From Chiloscyllium plagiosum (taxonomy: Eukaryota): a stretch of DNA of 58,762 bases. Position numbers and translations under genes: made by a program. The stretch covers positions 105,750,283-105,809,044 of the forward strand of contig NC_057718.1 in the NCBI RefSeq assembly GCF_004010195.1, read 5' to 3'. Position 1 is the stretch's first letter, and each line of letters begins with the position of its first letter. Shown here in pieces: positions 9,032 through 55,780 of the stretch. The notes beneath the pieces were generated by a model. It worked only from the letters and a program-made list of their open reading frames with translations, made no database searches and was not told the origin of the DNA.

Positions 9032-9833
9032 TGTGATGAGATTTCATGAAGTTATTGTTATTTGGAAACCTGAATTTTAAAGTAGACAGAATCATGTCTA
9101 GTTTAGGATTTTTTTTGTAATTTCATATTGTTTTGTTAAGAAAGAGAGGACAGTTTTAGTTACCTGAGGTTTTGTTTACCTGCATCTAAGTGAGGTCTCC
9201 AAACCCTCTGGATGAATAGTTCAAAGCATTAGAAACAAGGTCAAAGAAATAAAATTGTGTTTGCCTGGCAATAAGGTATCCTATGACACCAAGACTGAAT
9301 CATCCAAAAGGCCAGGGAGAGTGTGCAGGTTCAGTCCTACGAGAATAATGCATTAACTTTAGCAATCTCCAAAAGAAAAATCAGAGCTAGGGAAAATGTC
9401 CTGAGTGACCAAGGATCAATTGTTCAAAATTAGAAAATTGCTGGAAGTTTTATATACTTGTTCTGAAAGTGCTTAGAAGTCAATAAGAAGAAAGCTCCAG
9501 GAACCAATGATAGCTGCGCCGATTGAATGTGGAACTTTAAAGTAGACACAGGTGACCTTTCACCAGTATGTGAATATTTGTAAGGATGTTATTGAAGACA
9601 AAAGAGTTGAATATTTATTTGATATTTTTAATAGAATGGTCTTAAATTATTGGTGTATAGTGTAAAATACCTTTTTGTTTTGTGTGTAATAAACTTTGGG
9701 TTTCTTCTGTTAAAACTGTACTGGCACCCTCTCATGAATATGTTCAGTAAATACCATTACAAACAAAACTTATCAAGCCAGGTTTCACATTAGGTCTGAC
9801 TTGTCCAATATTACCATTAGCTTGGATCAAAGC
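9032..9833 (+). mobile_element. Possible old solo LTR
   Basis: Starts TGTGATG, has AATAAA near 9688 and a U5-like end (atcaagccaggtttcac...ggatca). Pattern recognition only. Confidence 0.35.
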
Positions 9834-15985: not shown

Positions 15986-16002
15986 CTCCTTAATGTACAG
16001 TA

Positions 16003-17325
16003 GTTAAAAATCACACTATACCAGCCTACAGTCCCAACAGGTTTATTTATAAGCATTAGCTTTCAGAGCACTACTCCTTCATATGATAGCTGTGGAGCAG
16101 GACCATAAGAGACAGAATTTATAGCAAAAGATCACAATGTCATGCAACTGAAATTATATATTGAACAACTCTAGATTGCTGTTAAGTCTTTCATCTTTTA
16201 GAATGGATTGCAGATTTCAGTTCATTAATATGTAAATCCCAGAACTTCTTTTAAGTCAAGTTCTCAAGATAACTTAAGGTTTTATTTTTTAAAAATGACA
16301 TCTCAGCTCAGACAATGCATTAAAGGTGTGAAGTTAGTGTCTGTCTGTATCCCAATCTTGAGTCAGACTGGTTCTATTTTCGAATGTCCATTTGCAGAAT
16401 TAGATAAAATCAATGACTGCAGATGCTGGAAACCAGATTTTGGATTAGTGGTGTTGGAAGAGCACAGCAGTTCAGGCAGCATCCGAGGAGCAGCATTAGC
16501 AGAATTATATTTGCAGATATATTTTATTTTGTTCAAAATGTGCACAATCAGCAGGCAGTCAATCCATGCATTATTTTATAAATTCTCAGTTCAGCATTTA
16601 GCCTCAGACCTTTGGGTGACTATCCTCCAAGGCAGACTTTGGGATATGCAACAATGCAGAGTGGCCGAGCAGAGGCTGTTAGCCAAGTTTGGTACCCACG
16701 AGGATGGCCTCAACAAGGACCTTGGGTTCATGTCACACTACAGGTGACCCCACTGCACTACATACTCACTCACACACTCTCTCTCTCTCACACATGCACG
16801 CACACACAAATAGGTCTGTGGGGTGAATTATATTTGCAGATACATTCTATGTCGCTCAAAAATCAGCAGGCAGTCAATCCATGTAATATTTTTAAAATTC
16901 CACTTTGGAAATAGAACCAGTCTGACTCAAGGTTGGAATACATAAAGACTCTAACCTCACACCTTTAACACATTGTCAGAGCTCAGATGTCACTTTTTTC
17001 TATAAAACCTTAAATTATCTCGAGAATGTGACTTAAAAGAAGTTCTGGGATTTACATATTAATGAACTGAAACCTGCAACCTATTCTAAAAGATGAAAGA
17101 CTTGACAGCAATCTATGTTTGTTCAATGTATCATTTCAGTTGCATGATACTGAAATATTTTGCTATAAATTCTGTGTCTTATGGTCCTGCTGCACAGCTA
17201 CCTGATGAAGGAGCAGTGCTCTGAAAGCTAGTGCTTCCAAATAAACCTATTGGGACTATAACCTGGTGTTGTGTGATTTTTAACTTTGTCCACCCCAGTC
17301 CAACACCGGCTTCTCCACATCATGA
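16003..17325 (+). mobile_element. Neptune-type PLE remnant: inverted pLTRs (~16003-16380 and ~16908-17284) around a GIY-YIG C-terminal fragment
   Basis: ~375-bp inverted arms. Internal peptide LWVTILQG...RVAEQRLLAKFGTHEDGLNKDLGFMSHY. HHR in the right arm. Family B fragment at ~16410-16494. Confidence 0.85.
17199..17233 (+). ncRNA. Minimal type I hammerhead ribozyme motif (family A pLTR)
   Basis: UAC-CUGAUGA-A-GGAGC agu GCUCU-GAAA-GCUA^GUG: intact core, stem II, palindromic AGCU stem III, short stem I. Confidence 0.8.
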
Positions 17326-18065
17326 CTCCTTTATGTAAACTTGCTTTATGTTCTAGAGATTGACTGTACTTTGTTTAACAAATTACCACATAACTTTCAA
17401 ACCAAATTGCATCAATGATTTCTTTACCTCAGTCTGGCTGACGAGCATATGCACTGAAGTGTCAATAAAACACATGACCCAGTGGCACAATGAATAATAT
17501 TCCTAGTCATCCAGAATTCCCAATCTCAGATACTTTGTTATAGGAAGTGCAAGCTGATGGTCAGGCACTTTCCCTTCCAGCCAACACTATCACACCTTCC
17601 AGCAAATGCTTTCAGAACAGCAGCTTACAGTCGGGAGCAACATGGTTTATTGCTGCAAACTGAAGTGATCAAAGAAAAAGAGCAGCAGGAAAGTGTGACA
17701 TAAGGTAGTTTAAGAAACCCCTATGAGTTTAAGTCTCTTGAAAATAAGAGCATACCAAACATTCAGAAAAGTCGCACACATGTGGGAGGCACTGAAAGGT
17801 AATGTGTGCTTGCCTGAAATGAGAAAGCAATTAATTGGAGGAATTAAAAACCTGGGATGCAAATAAGAATTTTGCAATGCTTGTAGGGAAGATCACATGT
17901 TGTAGTGATTATAATGAGGTCAGCCAAGTGGACCTCATAAAATGAATTCCCTGATTGGGGCTGCTAATCTCATCCAATCATGGAGCTCTGGCTGACAGAT
18001 AAACAGGAGTTTCAGACATTCTGTTTACTCTGAGGGTTGCATCAGTGCCAATGACTCTCCATTTG

Positions 18066-19140
18066 TGTCAGGGGACTGACTCTGAGATGGCTGCCCACAT
18101 CCAGTGTGTACTGCTGCTGTTGGTTTCTGTTTTTTTCTGGGGAACCTGATTCCTGAAGTGGTTTGAACTATACAGTCAGTTTGTTAACTGGTATTCCTTT
18201 AAATTGAGGACTGATTTCTAAACTGGCTGATTTACAGTCAGTGTTTCAGGTATAATTCAGTTCTCATTAGGGAACTGTTGTTTCACTGGCTGATTACAGT
18301 CTGTGTGTTACTCTTTTCTTTTACTTTGAGAAAAGGACTATGCTGATTTTGTGGCAGAGCTTAACCCTTGCATTCTTGGTTTCTTTCTTTTTTTTTTGCA
18401 TGTGTTTTCACTTTTTTGGTGTTTAGATTTAGCCCCTGTGAAAAAATGCACCTTTCCAGATGAACTGTTCCTCTGTAGGTGGACTAGGCTTCTGAAAAGA
18501 CTGAATACTTGTGTGTGCTGGGAAGTGAGCATTTGCTGTGTCCTCCTTTGGGAGTGGACCAAACCTCTGAGTTAACTGCATCTTTACAATGAACCGTTCC
18601 TGATCTTTTGTGGATAGACCAGGCCTTTATGGAGACTGAACATCTGTGGTGTGCACTGTGGGGTGTACATTTGCTGCCTTCAGGAGTGGACTCTGCATAC
18701 CAGAATGGATTCTGCCTTTGGTTGTGGATTCTATTTCTGACAACTTACTCTGTGTGCTGGAGTGGATGGGGAGGACAGGATGTCCGAGAGTTGGCCACAA
18801 GGGGCATGTTGGACTGACAGCCGGAAGGGGTGTAGGGGCAGGCTATCTTTGCGTGGCTGGAAGGTGGGAAGACGGGTGGTTTGCTAAGTTGCCATGGGTG
18901 TCTGTGAAATATGCACTGTTTCATTATTCAGTTTATCAGACTGTTTGTTTGTAATTGTGTCTCCTGTTTTTGGTAAGGTGGGATTTGAAGTTTGTCCTCT
19001 CATTTTGTTTCCCCTGTGAACTGGTTGTATGGTGGGGTTTGGGGGTCTGGCTTTGCCCCCCCACCTTTCCCTATAAATTGCTGTTTCTTGTAAACTGCTG
19101 TTTATTGTTAACTGTTTGTGATTTTACTGGTTAATAAAAT
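18066..19140 (+). mobile_element. Non-autonomous insert 1 in the LTR (possibly Tx1/L1-clade derived)
   Basis: Starts tgtcaggggactgactctgagatggctgcc; T-rich 3' region ends ttaataaaat; shares 5', middle and 3' blocks with insert 2. Clade assignment is inference. Confidence 0.6.
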
Positions 19141-19301
19141 ATAAACAGGAGTGGCAGACATCCTGTTGACTCTGCGGGAACTGGATCAATGTCAAGGACA
19201 TTTCAGTCAGGGGACTGACTGAGATGGCTACTCACATCCAGTGTGTACTGCTGCTGTTGGTTTTTTTTTTGGGAACCCGATTCCTAAACTGGCTGAATTA
19301 T

Positions 19302-20157
19302 GTAGCCAGCGTAGAGTGTGGTGCTGGAAAAGCACAGTGGGTCAGGCAGCATCTGAGGTGCAGGAGAATTGATGTTTCAGGCATAAGCCCTTCACGAATA
19401 AGGCTTGTGGGCTGGGAAAATTGGAAGGGAGGAGGGTGGCGCTGGGAGGCAAGGTAACTGAGAGCCTCCAACCTCATCATCCACGAACCTTGCTCCACTC
19501 TCTTCCACTTCCTACTGAAGATTCCCAAACCTAACTTCCCTGGTTGACCCATTGTCTCAATTGCCTCTTGTCCCACTGAACTCATCTCTGCATACCTTGA
19601 CACCATCCTGCCCCCTCCGCGCCCCCCCCAACTCCAGTCCAGGAACTCCCAACCTACATTCGGGACACCACCCACGCCCTAGTCCCTGTACACATCTACC
19701 CACAACTAAGGCCTCCAAGCTCTCCATTTCTTCCTTTCTCACCATCCCAACCAGTATGACCTTCATCCGCCTGGCTGAACTGGTCCCCACCCTCAACAAC
19801 TTCTCCTTCCAATCCTCCCACTTCCTCCAAACCAAAGGGGTAGCCATGGACCCAGCTATGCCTGCGTCTTTGTTGGGTATGTGGAACAGTCCATCTTCCA
19901 CAGCCAAACAGGCACCATTCCCCACCTTTTCCTCCGCTACATCGATGACTGACTGAATCGGCACCACCTCGTGCTGCCACAAATAGGTTGAAAAGCTAAT
20001 CAACTTCACCAACACCTTTCACCCCAAAGTCACATTTATCTGGACCATCTGACACCTCCCTTCTCTTCCTGGACCTCTCCATCTCCGGCGACCGACTAAC
20101 CACTGAGATTATTACAAACCCACTGACCCCCACAGCTACCTGCACTACACCACCTCC
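19302..20157 (+). mobile_element. PLE fragment: inverted family B pLTR (~19302-19455) plus decayed RT
   Basis: Peptides PIVSIASCPTELISAYLD, LNNFSFQSSHFLQTKGVAM, FLRYIDD are Penelope-type RT motifs. Confidence 0.85.
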
Positions 20158-21087
20158 TGTGAGATAATGCACCTTTCCAGATGAACTGTTCCTCTGTGGG
20201 TAGGCTTAGCCCTTTGTGGGTAGACTCAGCCTCAAAGACTGAACAGGTGTGTGCGCACAGGGAGGTGAACATTTGCTGCATCCTGGAATGGACCATTCCC
20301 TGTGGGTTAACTGCACCTTTTTACAATGAACTGTATTCCTGTGAGTGGGCCTAGTTCTGTGTGGATAGACCAGGCCTCTATGCAGACTGAACACTTGTGT
20401 GTGCGCCTTCAAGCGTGGACTCTGCCTGGGTACTGGAAACTGTGTATTGTGAGAATTTTGTGAATTCTGTTACTGTATGTGGGTTTTGTAATTGATTGTG
20501 TTTGAGTATGGGCTAGTCAGTACATGGGGTAGCTGGGGACTGCAGGGTTGATGACTGATTGTGTACTGACCAATGTGGGAGGGGCTAGGCAATTGATAGT
20601 GTGCTCACAGGAAGGCCAGTATAAGTCAGGCCAGTATAAGTCAGGCCGGTCAGTACGTGGAGAGGCTGAGCCAGGCGGCCGACAGCAACCTGTCGGAAGG
20701 CCAACCAGAGGAGGACTAATCAGTATGTTGGGAGCCATACAGCCGATGATCGGTCCATAGGAACACCGGCCAGGAGAAAAAGTCAGTCAGTACGCTGGAA
20801 GGCCGACAGCCCGACCGTAGGAAAGCAGATTGGGGGTGGCTTGGCCAGTATACTGCGTGACCGGTAGCCTGTGGCCGACGTCCGTCCCGAGGAAAGTGGC
20901 TGGGGAGGGTCAGTCAGGACGGAGACTGGAAGGCCAACAATCAGCCCATATTATTGAGTAAGTATGTGAGGTGCATGGGAGCTGGGTAGTCGACGACTAG
21001 GCTGGAAGAAAACAGGCCTGGGAAGGGTCGGTCAGTACGCAGGGCAGCTGGAGTCTGGAAGACCAACGACTGTCCTGCAGGAAGGTT

Positions 21088-21179
21088 CCTGAAGAAGGGC
21101 TTATGCCCGAAACATCGATTCTCCTGCTCCTTGGATGCTGCCTGACCTGCTGCTCTTTTCCAGCAACACATTTTCAGCT
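21088..21179 (+). mobile_element. 92-bp HHR-only PLE insertion with 13-bp TSD
   Basis: CTGAAGA-A-GGGCttatGCCC-GAAA-CATC core at 21089-21116. TSD ctgcaggaaggtt at 21075-21087 and 21180-21192. Confidence 0.85.
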
Positions 21180-22039
21180 CTGCAGGAAGGTTAGCCAAGG
21201 ATGGTCTGATCAGAGTGTGGTGTGAACTGGTGTCAAGTTTTTTTAAGCTATATTGGGTCTGTGCTTTATGCACTTTTTTTTTCATTTGATTGGACTGTCT
21301 TGTCTGTGTTTGTTACTGTTTACTTTGTGATGCTTGAAAGTGATATTTGAGGTTTGTCCTTATTTCCCTGAAAACTGGTTGAATGGTGGGGCTTGGCTTT
21401 GCTCCCATTCCTCTGTATATAGCTTTTTTTTAACCGCTGCTTTCTGTTTATTGTTAGCTGTAATTTATACTATTAAATAAAATTTTAGCAAAATAAACAG
21501 GTGTGTCAGAGATCCTGTTCACTCTGGGAGCTGGCTCTGCAGGAGCTGGATCAGTATCAAGGACTCTCCACATGTAAATAAATGATGACTTGGCGATGGA
21601 ATACCGCACCCAGAGAAGTACTTCACCTTTAAATACCTGGAAAAAGTCAAAGTGACAGGTGTGTCTCTGATCATCCCAATTGGATATACTTATGGCATAT
21701 AGGCTATAACCATGAAAAACAGGTTCTTCAATAAATTGTACTTTTTGACTATGATATTAAGATGTAATTCAACTCCAACAGCTCATACTAATAGAGAATA
21801 AAAGCCCACATGCAGCACCCTTGAATCACGACTATGTAGAAGAAAATGTACATTATACAGATACTGCTGCACATAGTAAATTGAAAAGCACATGCTCAAA
21901 ATTACAAAATAGCACATCAGCAGATGCAGGAAAATAATATTAGCAAAAGCAAGACAGATGAAGTGACAGAACATTACAGCTCACCAACTATAGTATAGAG
22001 AGTATACAGTAGAGAGAGAAAAGAAGAAAGCTTGTAGAC

Positions 22040-26407: not shown

Positions 26408-26963
26408 GTTAAAAACAATGACTGCAGATGCTGGAAACCAGATTTTGGATCAGTGGTGCTGGAAGAGCACAGCAGTTCAGGCAGCATCCGAGGAGCAGCG
26501 AAATCGACGTTTTGGACAAAAGTCCTTCATCAGGAATAAAGGCAGAGAGCCTGAAGCATGGAGAGATAAGCTAGAGGAGGGGGGGGGTGGGGAGAAAGTA
26601 ACATAGAGTACAATAGGTGAGTGGGGGAGGGGATGAAGGTGATAGGTCAGGGAGGAGAGGGTGGAGTGGATAGGTGGAAAAGAAGATAGGCAGGTAGGAC
26701 AGGTCCGCTGCCTATCTTCTTTTCCACCTATCCACTCCACCCTCTCCTCCCTGACCTATCACCTTCATCCCCTCCCCCACTCACCTACTGTACTCTATAC
26801 TACTTTCTCCCCACCCCCACCCTCCTCTAGCTTATCTCTCCACGATTCAGGCTCTCTGCCTTTATTCCTGATGAAGGGCTTTTTCCCGAAACGTCGAATT
26901 TGCTGCTCCTCGGATGCTGCCTGAACTGCTGTGCTCTTCCAGCACCACTGATCCAAAAACAAA
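26408..26963. mobile_element. 556-bp foldback (palindromic) PLE derivative, family B, with 15-bp TSD
   Basis: 251-bp inverted arms at 26443-26693 and 26708-26958, 14-nt spacer, 35-nt tail on the left arm only. TSD gagtggaagatggag at 26393-26407 and 26964-26978. Confidence 0.92.
26864..26899 (+). ncRNA. Minimal type I hammerhead ribozyme motif (intact)
   Basis: AUUC-CUGAUGA-A-GGG cuuuuu CCC-GAAA-CGUC^GAAU: stem I AUUC/GAAU, palindromic ACGU stem III, predicted cleavage after 26895. Confidence 0.85.
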
Positions 26964-41086: not shown

Positions 41087-41890
41087 GACCTCTTTCATCA
41101 GGCAGAAGATACTAAAGCTTAAACACATGTACCAATAGGTTCAAGGACAGCTTCTTCCCCAGTGTTATTAGATTTAGCTGGTATGGCAACTGTACCATTC
41201 AAGATTGGAGACGGTTACACAGAGTGGTGAACTCAACTCGTAAAACCACAAAGGCCAACTTCCCATCTATAGAATCCATCTGAATCCTTCCTGAAGAAGG
41301 GCTAATGCCTGAAACGTCGATTCTCCTGTTCCCTAGATGCTGCCTGACCTGCTGCGCTTTTCCAGCAACACATTTCCATCTATAGAATCCATCTACCAAG
41401 CCCGCTGTCAAGGAAAGGCTGCCAGCATTCTTAAAGATCCATCCTACCCTGGCATTGTTTTTCTACAACCTCTACCACGGAGAGAAGGTACAGAAGCCTG
41501 AACACGCACTCGCTGGTTTCCGAACAGTTTTTACCCTACTGTTGTTAGAATACTGAATGGACTCTCAAACTCTTAACATTCGCCTGTACCCATGTTTTTG
41601 TTTTTGTCTCTGTTTACCTATTATTTATGTATCTACGCTATGTAACTGTGCGATCTGCCTGTATTGCTCGCAAAACAAAACTTCTCACTGCGCCTCAGTA
41701 CCCATGACAATAAATTCAATTCAATTCTGAATGGACCTCTTAAATTTCAAATCTAATGTTGATCTTGCTTTTAGTGCACCTTCTTTGCAGCCATAACTCT
41801 GTCTTCCTCGCTCTGTTCGATCACCCTAATATCTTTGTATGGTAATGATCTGCCTGCACTGCACACAAAATAAAACTTTTCACCATACCT
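41087..41890 (+). mobile_element. Two nested Rex1/Babar LINE 3' fragments (inner copy ~41175-41725)
   Basis: Inner copy reads KAASILKDPSYPG...RRYRSLNT...NSFYPTVVRILNG and ends aataaattcaattcaattc. Outer copy (RFKDSFFPSVIR) resumes at ~41726. Confidence 0.72.
41282..41375 (+). mobile_element. 94-bp HHR-only PLE insertion with 19-bp TSD
   Basis: CTGAAGA-A-GGGCtaatGCCT-GAAA-CGTC core at 41291-41318. TSD ccatctatagaatccatct at 41263-41281 and 41376-41394. Confidence 0.88.
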
Positions 41891-54309: not shown

Positions 54310-55780
54310 CATTAATTACTTAGATGTGAATGTAGACAATGTACATAACAAACAGCAAGGGTCTCAGTACCAATCCCTTTGGTAGACAGCTGGTCACAGG
54401 CTTCCAATCACAAAAGCAACTCTCCATCAACACCCTTTTCCTCCCATTTATAAGTCAATTTTGGATCCAGTTTGCCAATGTGCCTTGGATCCCATGGGCA
54501 CTTACCTCTTGGATCAGTCTTCTATGTGAGACCTTGTCTAAGCCAGTGTAAACTGAAGCAAATGTAAACCACATCAATTGTATTATTCTCATCGATACAT
54601 TTAGTCAACCATTCAAAAAACTCAATTAAGTTTGTTAGATAAGATCTCCCTCCAACAAATCTTTGTCGTCTATACTTGATTAATCCATGCCTTTCCAAGT
54701 CTTGATTAAGCCTGTCCCTCAGAATTGTTTCCAATAATTCTCCTGCAACTGACATCAGATTAACTGGCCTGTAATTATTTGGTCTATCCCTGCTGCCTTT
54801 TTGAGCAAAGCAAACACATGAGCTATCTCCAGTTATCTGGTACTTCACTTCAGGCCAGCAAAGTATTAAATATCTCTGCAAGATTCCCAGCAATTTCCTC
54901 TCTTGCTTCCTGTTGCAGCCTGGGATATATCTCATCAAACCCAGGGGATTTATTCACCAGTATGTCTGTTAAGTATTCAACACTTCCTTCTTATTATTCT
55001 TAATGATTCTAGAACCTCACCATCCAAACTGAAATCCACAGCTACAATGTTTTTCTCTCTTGTGAATCTCGATTAAAAACATTTAAGACCTCACCCACAC
55101 CCTCTGGCTCCATGCACAGGTTGCGCCTTTGATCTCTAATAGATCCTACTCTTCCCCTAGGAGAAAGTGAGGACTGCAGATGCTGGAGCTCAGAATTGAG
55201 AGTGTCATGCTGGAAAAACACAGGTCAGCCCTTCATTTCTGATGAACAGCTTATGCCCGAAACAGCGACTCTCCTGCTTCTTGGATGCTGCCTGACATGC
55301 TGTGCTTTTCCAGCACCACACTTGACCATACTGTTTCCCTGGTAATCCTCTTATTCTTAAGAGTTTGGCTTAATGCTATCTGCCAAAAATATTTCCTTTT
55401 TAAGCAACCTCCTACACCATACATTTGAAGGGCCACCCTTGTTTTTGAAGTGCTGACCTGACATATACTTCCTTCTTTTTCCTTTATCAAACTCTAGATA
55501 TCCCTTTACAACCAGGATTCCCTGAACTTGCTGTTCTTGCCCTTCAATCTTAAAGGAATTCACTAGCCCTGAATTCTTACTTTACTACTTTTAAAAGATT
55601 CTCACTTTCCAGTGCAGACCTACTTGTAAGTACTTGTGCCCAGTCAGTGTCTACCAGATCTGTCCAATGATATTGAAATTGTTTTCCTACAGTTTAGACA
55701 TTTAACTCTAAGTTTCAAAGTCATGATGGAAAAGGATAAGAATAGTGCAGAAGTTATGATCACTATTCCCAAAATTCTCA
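54310..55780 (-). mobile_element. Old CR1 ORF2 fragment
   Basis: NYRPVNLMSVAGELLETILRD, GRSYLTNLIEFFE. Confidence 0.8.
55160..55328. mobile_element. Family B PLE foldback remnant with decayed HHR
   Basis: ggagaaagtgaggactgcagatgctggag tail; gctggaaaaacaca / tgtgcttttccagc inverted; ctgatgaacagcttatgcccgaaacagc. Confidence 0.7.

Follow-up and report, generated by a model that had tools for sequence, protein, structure and literature searches.

Structure of the locus

The window analysed here is the whole 58,762-nucleotide stretch of Chiloscyllium plagiosum DNA, in which two related elements are stacked within a solo LTR of Gypsy type at 17901..21625. The layout, LTR 5′ part, T1, body 1, T2, body 2, T3 and LTR 3′ part, where T is the part of the LTR running from its TATA-like site through R, was confirmed with the coordinates given by the sequence-only reading that first described it.

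17901..17998 (+): 5′ part (U3) of the solo Gypsy-type LTR, assigned by sequence and colinear with ~235-nt LTR copies
17999..18061 (+): T1, rebuilt LTR segment, TATA-like site through R region, with a 13-nt deletion
18062..18112 (+): head of element 1, a short linker plus a segment with homology both to the subtype-B LTR R region and to the autonomous Tx1's 5′ head
18062..19140 (+): element 1 (body 1), a 1.08 kb member of the non-coding family, shortened internally
19141..19204 (+): T2, second rebuilt LTR segment, with the 13-nt deletion
19205..21492 (+): element 2 (body 2), second, independently diverged copy of the family, broken by two later insertions
19309..20155 (strand not assigned, ends approximate): later insertion in element 2, with an inverted terminal repeat and a broken RT-like fragment
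21088..21179 (+): later short insertion in element 2, with the same terminal repeat as 19309..20155
21493..21569 (+): T3, full-length TATA-to-R segment belonging to the LTR itself
21570..21625 (+): 3′ end of the solo LTR, with AATAAA and terminal CA

The outer pieces form a real solo LTR, other copies of which are ~235 nt long and run from TG to CA; among the 29 other copies viewed, 5 had a PBS-like flank downstream and 7 had a purine tract upstream. The 5-nt flanks of the window's LTR (17896-17900 and 21626-21630) match at 3 of 5 positions, and its U3 contains CCAAT at 17974-17978. Two LTR subtypes, A and B, could be distinguished, mostly by differences at T positions 18-25, and both carry an Inr-like motif 28-30 nt after a TATA-like box, a word that varies among LTR copies and is degenerate in the window's LTR. 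The Inr-like A of T1 is 18027. The head following T is homologous to the R region of subtype B, a relationship that the sequence-only reading had missed.

The first 38 nt of T1, T2 and T3 are 82-87% alike, and the 13 nt of T3 reported to be absent from T1 and T2 are indeed missing from both. Element 1 contains internal ~135-nt repeats, a T-rich tail, AATAAA and an A-rich end, and in both bodies AATAAA and an A-rich run precede the next T. Identity between the two elements is 79% over T plus head and 79% over the tails. The bodies differ substantially, as had been claimed, but ~0.94 kb of this difference consists of the two later insertions in body 2, which had been overlooked. The larger insertion, which takes the place of ~250 nt of body 2, gave no Pfam match in the three frames searched; its motifs suggest that it is Penelope-like. 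The smaller is bordered by a 13-nt duplication (21075-21087 and 21180-21192).

A non-coding family at one LTR site

The two stacked bodies are one instance of an abundant genome-wide family of non-coding elements, ~1.2-2.4 kb in length and without an ORF, with a head that is LTR-derived by homology, a body with long T runs and an A-rich 3′ end after a polyadenylation signal. Many copies are 5′-truncated, which together with the A-tails marks their sequences as insertions of LINE type. In 18 units checked for ORFs, no Tx1 similarity was found except for one short piece in one unit. Among the papers listed by literature searches, the bamboo shark included, none was seen to describe this family or its 5′ junction.

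Loci, tails and heads were sampled among the matches listed, namely the best 40 per search. Among these matches, 58 of 75 distinct tails lay in this Gypsy-type LTR family, compared with 0 of 300 control positions. LTR R directly followed 42 of the 75, and a further 16 showed the site motif plus another insert, or an LTR end within 0.4 kb, R or an LTR end being present at 0 of the 300 controls; 8 showed only a motif, also present at 43 of the 300 controls, and 9 were without any LTR sign. The flanks were not random, supporting the earlier proposal of a non-autonomous family at one site of this LTR family, and their share in one repeat places the family among the target-specific elements as defined by >20% of flanks (PMC4494074). 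In the first head search, 25 of 29 distinct heads among the matches listed were scored as preceded by A-type T, the others being, by eye, 3 B-type-looking and 1 degenerate.

Insertions occupy the TATA-like site in a single orientation. LTR sequence extends past the AAC of the site in 41 of the 54 truncated inserts that could be measured, by a median of 11 nt (8-15 nt in the family, n=9; 5-14 nt in Tx1, n=32), and the short duplication of truncated copies ends ~11-12 nt past AAC, a boundary common to the family and Tx1. A fresh target is left after insertion, as had been proposed, but an ordinary short duplication leaves one too. The body tree was star-like and poorly resolved, with bootstrap unsettled; since neighbours in two arrays (L076 and L367) are sisters on it, local duplication contributes to arrays.

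A Tx1 LINE at the same site

An autonomous Tx1 LINE of ~7 kb, encoding APE and RT, was found at the same LTR site with the same 5′ boundary, supporting the predicted Tx1-clade partner with an APE-RT ORF2. Pfam identified APE (PF03372) and RT (PF00078) domains in ORF2, whose best named near-full-length match was the Xenopus Tx1 149 kDa protein (52% identity over 98% of 628 aa); ORF1 frames are present, and the one read by Pfam gave no match. LTR parts lay within 1.5 kb of 24 of 30 Tx1 tail loci among the matches listed. T plus head at the Tx1 5′ end and in the non-coding family are 67-73% identical over 135-144 nt.

The common site, the common 5′ boundary and the homologous 5′ head make the Tx1 LINE the likely mobiliser of the non-coding family, as judged from sequence. 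Tail and body of the family showed no homology to three long Tx1 copies, and Tx1 ORF2 occurred within 1.5 kb upstream in 1 of 30 family tails, that one being a stack neighbour. No autonomous element bearing the family's tail or body turned up among the tails examined, which leaves site, boundary and head as the grounds for mobilisation in trans. The family fits an internally deleted Tx1 only in part: its 5′ end is shared with the LINE, whereas its 3′ end, set against the three long copies, is not.

The upstream T as a target/element chimera

The T upstream of an insertion was compared with the terminal T of the same locus at 22 loci (19 family, 3 Tx1). Similarity at T positions 15-28 was 0.832 within loci versus 0.705 between loci (p=0.0001), and at positions 29-77 it was 0.804 versus 0.792 (p=0.07), a test that is weaker past position 25 because the subtype differences lie mostly before it. 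Clean single insertions numbered 2, and the position test on subtype B had n=5. The first ~28 nt of the upstream T are local LTR and the remainder mostly travels with the element, with the switch at the Inr-like motif ~30 nt after the TATA-like box. For T1 in the window, the proximal part is likely target-derived and the distal part element-borne.

Distal T was joined to non-T DNA in 18 of 30 Tx1 5′ ends and was carried into a different LTR subtype at L198 and L200; read from these junctions, distal T is element-borne. The Tx1 copy L197, which adjoins an assembly gap, has a ~160-nt duplication from the nick to the T homology. The claim that each element carries a captured copy of the target at its 5′ end therefore holds in that LTR-derived sequence is carried, but fails for the first ~28 nt, which come from the local target.

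The types of the 5′ end and of the 3′ LTR were compared in 63 copies, giving A-A 21, B-B 16, B-A 3 and A-B 0, with 23 unclassified; the type at the 5′ end thus goes with the subtype of the 3′ LTR. A and B types were intermixed on the body tree (28 changes versus ~33 when shuffled).

Predicted promoter use and mechanism

We consider it probable that the bodies are copies of a non-coding, A-tailed family at one Gypsy-type LTR site, likely inserted by the endonuclease and RT of the Tx1 LINE, with predicted transcription from the LTR promoter, which each full-length insertion would rebuild. Promoter use is suggested by position: full-length copies restore the LTR start region ahead of themselves and would thus be transcribed from the promoter that they interrupt. 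The earlier version, in which a CCAAT-TATA promoter was rebuilt each time, holds only for the 5′-most element of a stack, which has CCAAT upstream; inner ones follow an A-tail.

Insertion is seen at the TATA-like site in one orientation, with truncated copies leaving a short duplication. RNA of the 5′-most full-length copy would start at the LTR Inr-like motif and so begin with LTR R sequence. After reverse transcription, the cDNA end may pair with the matching R located immediately downstream of where the new target is nicked, and the stretch from the nick to the point of pairing would be copied; cDNA-target pairing has precedent in R2 (PMC3774820). The resulting upstream T would be the chimera observed, ~28 nt of local LTR followed by largely element-type sequence, with the TATA-Inr spacing restored. 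The recurrent deletion in T could arise by mispairing of two short direct repeats in T. Each insertion would leave targets on both sides, so that stacks could grow.

With less assurance, we lean slightly towards a broader proposal, in which a Tx1 system made up of the LINE and its non-coding passenger lacks its own promoter, cuts the LTR at the TATA box and uses an LTR-derived cDNA 5′ end as a homology guide downstream of the cut, so that each full-length insertion would rebuild TATA-Inr and adapt to the LTR subtype; in one Tx1 subfamily, the guide appears instead to be part of the element's own 3′ region.

The joining of the LINE 5′ end is a long-open step, and thousands of natural events at one defined site here present two regimes, a short duplication in truncated copies and a homology-extended one in full-length copies. 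The young Tx1 family, with copies 98-99% identical, makes 5′ joining testable. If promoter use is true, one transposon lives on the Pol II promoter of another while truncating its transcript, and downstream homology at the RNA 5′ end could let an APE-type enzyme insert full-length copies precisely, a matter examined until now mostly in R2.

Alternative explanations

It is possible, though unlikely, that Tx1 insertion and the homology-guided 5′ junction operate as proposed but that the RNA comes from host or upstream-array read-through or from an internal promoter, the rebuilt promoter being a by-product. Reads and contigs of related runs on the Tx1 5′ end and on 17820-19220 showed no start pile-up, but their depth was mostly U3 of LTRs at other loci, so that they do not bear on where transcripts start. 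Sequence from upstream of the presumed start is present at three B-type 5′ ends located in A-type arrays, indicating that some RNAs began further upstream, and an internal piece of subtype-B U3 in copies L068, L073 and L354 likewise shows that sequence upstream of the Inr was at times part of the RNA. Against this, the Inr-like motif is close both to the point where target gives way to element sequence and to the free 5′ ends of Tx1 heads, and both LTR subtypes carry such a motif 28-30 nt after the TATA-like box.

Very unlikely is a plain, long (~75-nt) target-site duplication from a distant second-strand cut, with the element carrying nothing. Agreement of 5′ and 3′ types in 37 of the 40 classified copies favours it, as does a looser pair set with array neighbours, in which the within-locus excess extends to position 45-60. 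Truncated copies, however, have the short duplication only, the 18 of 30 Tx1 5′ ends and the subtype mismatches above show distal T without proximal T or in a non-matching LTR, and in L061 and L006, for example, the upstream T keeps the common distal variant whereas the terminal T has another.

We give still less credence to the original proposal that the element carries T in full as a fixed component, with the deleted form as the family type, notwithstanding that the upstream T of A-type copies ends at one fixed point before the linker and that the deletion is six-fold enriched upstream by odds (16 of 41 upstream copies versus 8 of 83 LTR-own copies). The other 25 upstream copies are without it and it ranges in length from 12 to 17 nt, so that it is recurrent rather than fixed; positions 15-28 match the local LTR as well, unless later gene conversion explains the match.

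The T-body-T-body-T order resembles an array of the LTR-internal-LTR kind, formed by an LTR or split-repeat element, and the sister neighbours in two other arrays would speak for such an array or for local tandem duplication. For this locus both readings are refuted. In blastn, none of 11 stretches of internal region from the LTR element matched the bodies, which showed neither a PBS after a whole LTR nor a purine tract before one; the family has A-tails and 5′-truncated copies; and each window tail is closer to relatives elsewhere (82-84%) than to its neighbour (79%). The sequence-only reading had likewise argued against a recent tandem duplication.

Comparison with known systems

Targeting of this kind is not in itself new; what is new is a 5′ end that is chimeric and restores the promoter. 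LTR-targeting Tx1 LINEs, the crocodilian Tx1-8_Crp and Tx1-4_AMi, were published earlier (Kojima 2015, PMC4494074), the text of that paper giving no position in the LTR and no link to a promoter; unlike them, the elements of the window are non-coding, with LTR R sequence at their start. Xenopus Tx1L, whose ORF2 provided the 52% match, likewise targets another transposon (PMC4494074), but its target is the piggyBac-type Tx1D rather than an LTR.

R2 relies on the target's transcription, as proposed here, and has non-autonomous passengers, the SIDEs (PMC3774820, PMC3414825, PMC6895275); target sequence on its RNA 5′ end has been proposed to anneal to the target and yield uniform 5′ junctions (PMC3774820). 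In these accounts, R2 carries sequence upstream of the cut and has an RLE endonuclease, a ribozyme and little or no duplication (PMC3774820, PMC3414825, PMC6895275), whereas the sequence carried here comes from downstream of the cut, giving a longer duplication and a rebuilt start region of Pol II type. SVA, too, is a non-coding Pol II retroposon of ~2 kb that is mobilised in trans, and one of its subfamilies is described as using an upstream gene promoter (PMC4494074), but SVA lacks site specificity and its borrowed promoter is not regenerated on insertion.

SINEU-1/2/3 and Tx1-Mar, as described in PMC4494074, resemble the present system in comprising non-autonomous retroposons that have a transposon target in common with a Tx1 group and often occur in tandem, with 5′ heads common with the LINE and no common 3′ end. 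Transcription from the flank has been proposed for SINEU, and SINEU-2B has a 5′ extension resembling its target (PMC4494074). SINEU heads are of U1/U2 snRNA, the elements usually measure <500 bp and their target is a Mariner (PMC4494074), whereas here the R region of the target itself serves as the head, the length is ~2 kb and the 5′ junction is a chimera of target and element.

Host LTR and arrangement of the insertions

The layout given by the sequence-only reading was borne out: two related bodies interrupt a solo LTR at its TATA-like site, each with the LTR segment T (from the TATA-like site through the R region) repeated in front of it. The relevant features of the window are the following:

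17901-21625: solo LTR, in the order LTR 5' part, T1, body1, T2, body2, T3 (the LTR's own copy), LTR 3' part
19309-20155 and 21088-21179: two later insertions in body2 of an unrelated repeat, which we take from its motifs to be Penelope-like
16448-16493, 26453-26536, 26865-26948, 41288-41381 and 55236-55323: further copies of the short terminal repeat of this abundant, presumably Penelope-like repeat
16002-16384 and 16904-17285: inverted repeat with long arms upstream of the LTR (284 + 94 nt, 86-88%), probably formed by two copies of one dispersed repeat in opposite orientation

The window LTR is a genuine LTR, which we assume to be of Gypsy type. Other copies are ~235 nt long, with a PBS-like flank downstream in 5 and a purine tract upstream in 7 of the 29 viewed besides the window's, and internal regions adjoining LTR copies translate to RT- and integrase-like fragments.

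A non-coding family with a fixed target site

The head (the family segment just after T) and both window tails were searched in the 3.56-Gb genome, with the best 40 of 941-1337 first-look candidates scored per search. Repeat content and a stingray hit suggest that this genome belongs to a cartilaginous fish. Tabulating the flanks upheld the site-specific insertion proposed from sequence alone: LTR R sequence directly followed 42 of the 75 distinct family tails (the window's two included), the site motif together with either another insert or an LTR end followed 10, and an LTR end lay within 0.4 kb of 6, whereas R or an LTR end occurred at 0/300 control positions. The site motif alone was found at 8/75 tails and 43/300 controls, and 9/75 tails were without any LTR sign. 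Full units span 1.7-2.4 kb, T copies included, and contain no Tx1-like reading frame; the bodies have no match to the internal region of the LTR element. Many copies are 5' truncated, abutting the 5' part of the LTR and accompanied by a short duplication. Since each window tail had closer relatives elsewhere, among the best 40 candidates scored per search, than in the neighbouring tail, body1 and body2 are two separate insertions. The family is well supported as a real site-specific non-autonomous retroposon.

The same position was also struck in a third subtype of the LTR, which has a different R region (L198, L200, L407 and L254). Two loci on one contig (L002/L061 and L004/L063, C40) have identical T and head sequence, which suggests a segmental duplication, and were counted once where sequences were de-duplicated.

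A Tx1 LINE at the same site

A second tail type at this LTR site belongs to a LINE of ~7 kb that carries ORF1 and an ORF2 with APE and RT; its RT region is 52% identical to the Xenopus Tx1 149 kDa protein. Young copies (97-99% identical in RT) exist, many adjoining assembly gaps, and older LINE tails (84-92%) overlap the age range of the family (76-89%). In truncated inserts of both the family and the LINE, the LTR sequence ends at a common point, a median of 11 nt past the AAC motif of the site (41/54 measurable cases). Because the two have only the 5' T and head in common (67-73% identical over 135-144 nt), we infer, rather than observe, that the family is moved in trans by the Tx1 LINE.

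Instead of T, 18/30 Tx1 5' ends join, at nearly one point, a fragment of the ORF2 end or 3' UTR of Tx1 itself that is truncated on its 3' side (L374, L376, L378, L379, L385-L387, L389, L391-L399 and L383; also L195, L198, L204, L206 and L210), which may reflect a subfamily that, in stacks, takes its 3' region as pairing partner, or else recurrent template jumping. One Tx1 copy next to an assembly gap (L197) is flanked by a ~160-nt direct duplication that starts at the nick and reaches the T homology (approximately 1767-1925 and 9657-9800), including older insert tails.

Origin of the upstream T

Insertion occurred at a fixed site and in one orientation, with a short duplication in truncated copies and a chimeric long duplication in full-length ones. 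Judging from the truncated copies, duplication is ordinarily short, which leaves the ~75-nt T in need of another source; the T upstream of an element was therefore compared with the terminal T of the same locus. In 22 loci, identity at T positions 15-28 was 0.832 within and 0.705 between loci (p=0.0001), and at positions 29-77 it was 0.804 and 0.792 (p=0.07), with lower power past position 28 because fewer sites there differ between LTR subtypes. The pattern recurred in a stricter set of 9 (p=0.008 for positions 16-30, no excess beyond). In a looser set of 23 pairs, which included array neighbours, an excess extended to position 45-60 and was absent at 61-77.

Distal T is attached to non-T DNA in 18/30 Tx1 5' ends, and in L198 and L200 it was brought into a different LTR subtype; these junctions show the distal part to be carried along with the RNA. 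A second LTR subtype, B, whose R region is the family's head, is also targeted. Among 63 copies with both ends, in which the B set was enriched by targeted search, 5'-3' types were A-A in 21, B-B in 16, B-A in 3, A-B in 0 and unclassified in 23; on the body tree, which is weakly resolved, the A and B types intermingle. The T deletion that T1 and T2 carry was found in 16/41 upstream versus 8/83 LTR-own copies (p=0.0002); across copies its length varies over 12-17 nt, and a short direct repeat lies on either side of it.

Proposed mechanism and promoter use

A Tx1 enzyme would nick the LTR at the TATA-like site and reverse-transcribe an RNA that starts with LTR R sequence, so that the cDNA end could anneal to the R sequence lying immediately downstream of the nick in the target, after which the gap would be copied. 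The switch between target and element lies at a motif resembling the Inr consensus; its distance downstream of the TATA-like box is ~30 nt for subtype A and 28 nt for subtype B. Because this is where LTR transcription would be predicted to start, the upstream T could act as a rebuilt promoter. Three discordant copies show that some RNAs began further upstream, and the promoter claim would fully apply only to the first element of a stack. As a structure, the promoter-rebuilding junction, which is the interesting part of the finding, is well supported; as a transcription strategy, it is likely on sequence grounds.

Kojima 2015 (PMC4494074) reports Tx1 families from LTR elements, together with non-coding SINEU passengers; these have target and head in common with Tx1, and transcription from the flank was proposed for them. 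For R2, non-autonomous passengers are described (PMC3414825), and pairing of cDNA and target via upstream target sequence has been proposed (Eickbush 2013, PMC3774820; PMC6895275), whereas here the homology lies downstream. A literature search outside Repbase and the PMC4494074 supplements turned up no published description of this family or of a junction made through downstream homology.

In the family copies L073 (L016), L354 and L068, part of the U3 of a subtype-B LTR, with CCAAT and a TATA-like box, lies internally between two heads as a predicted captured core promoter, and is present twice in L073.
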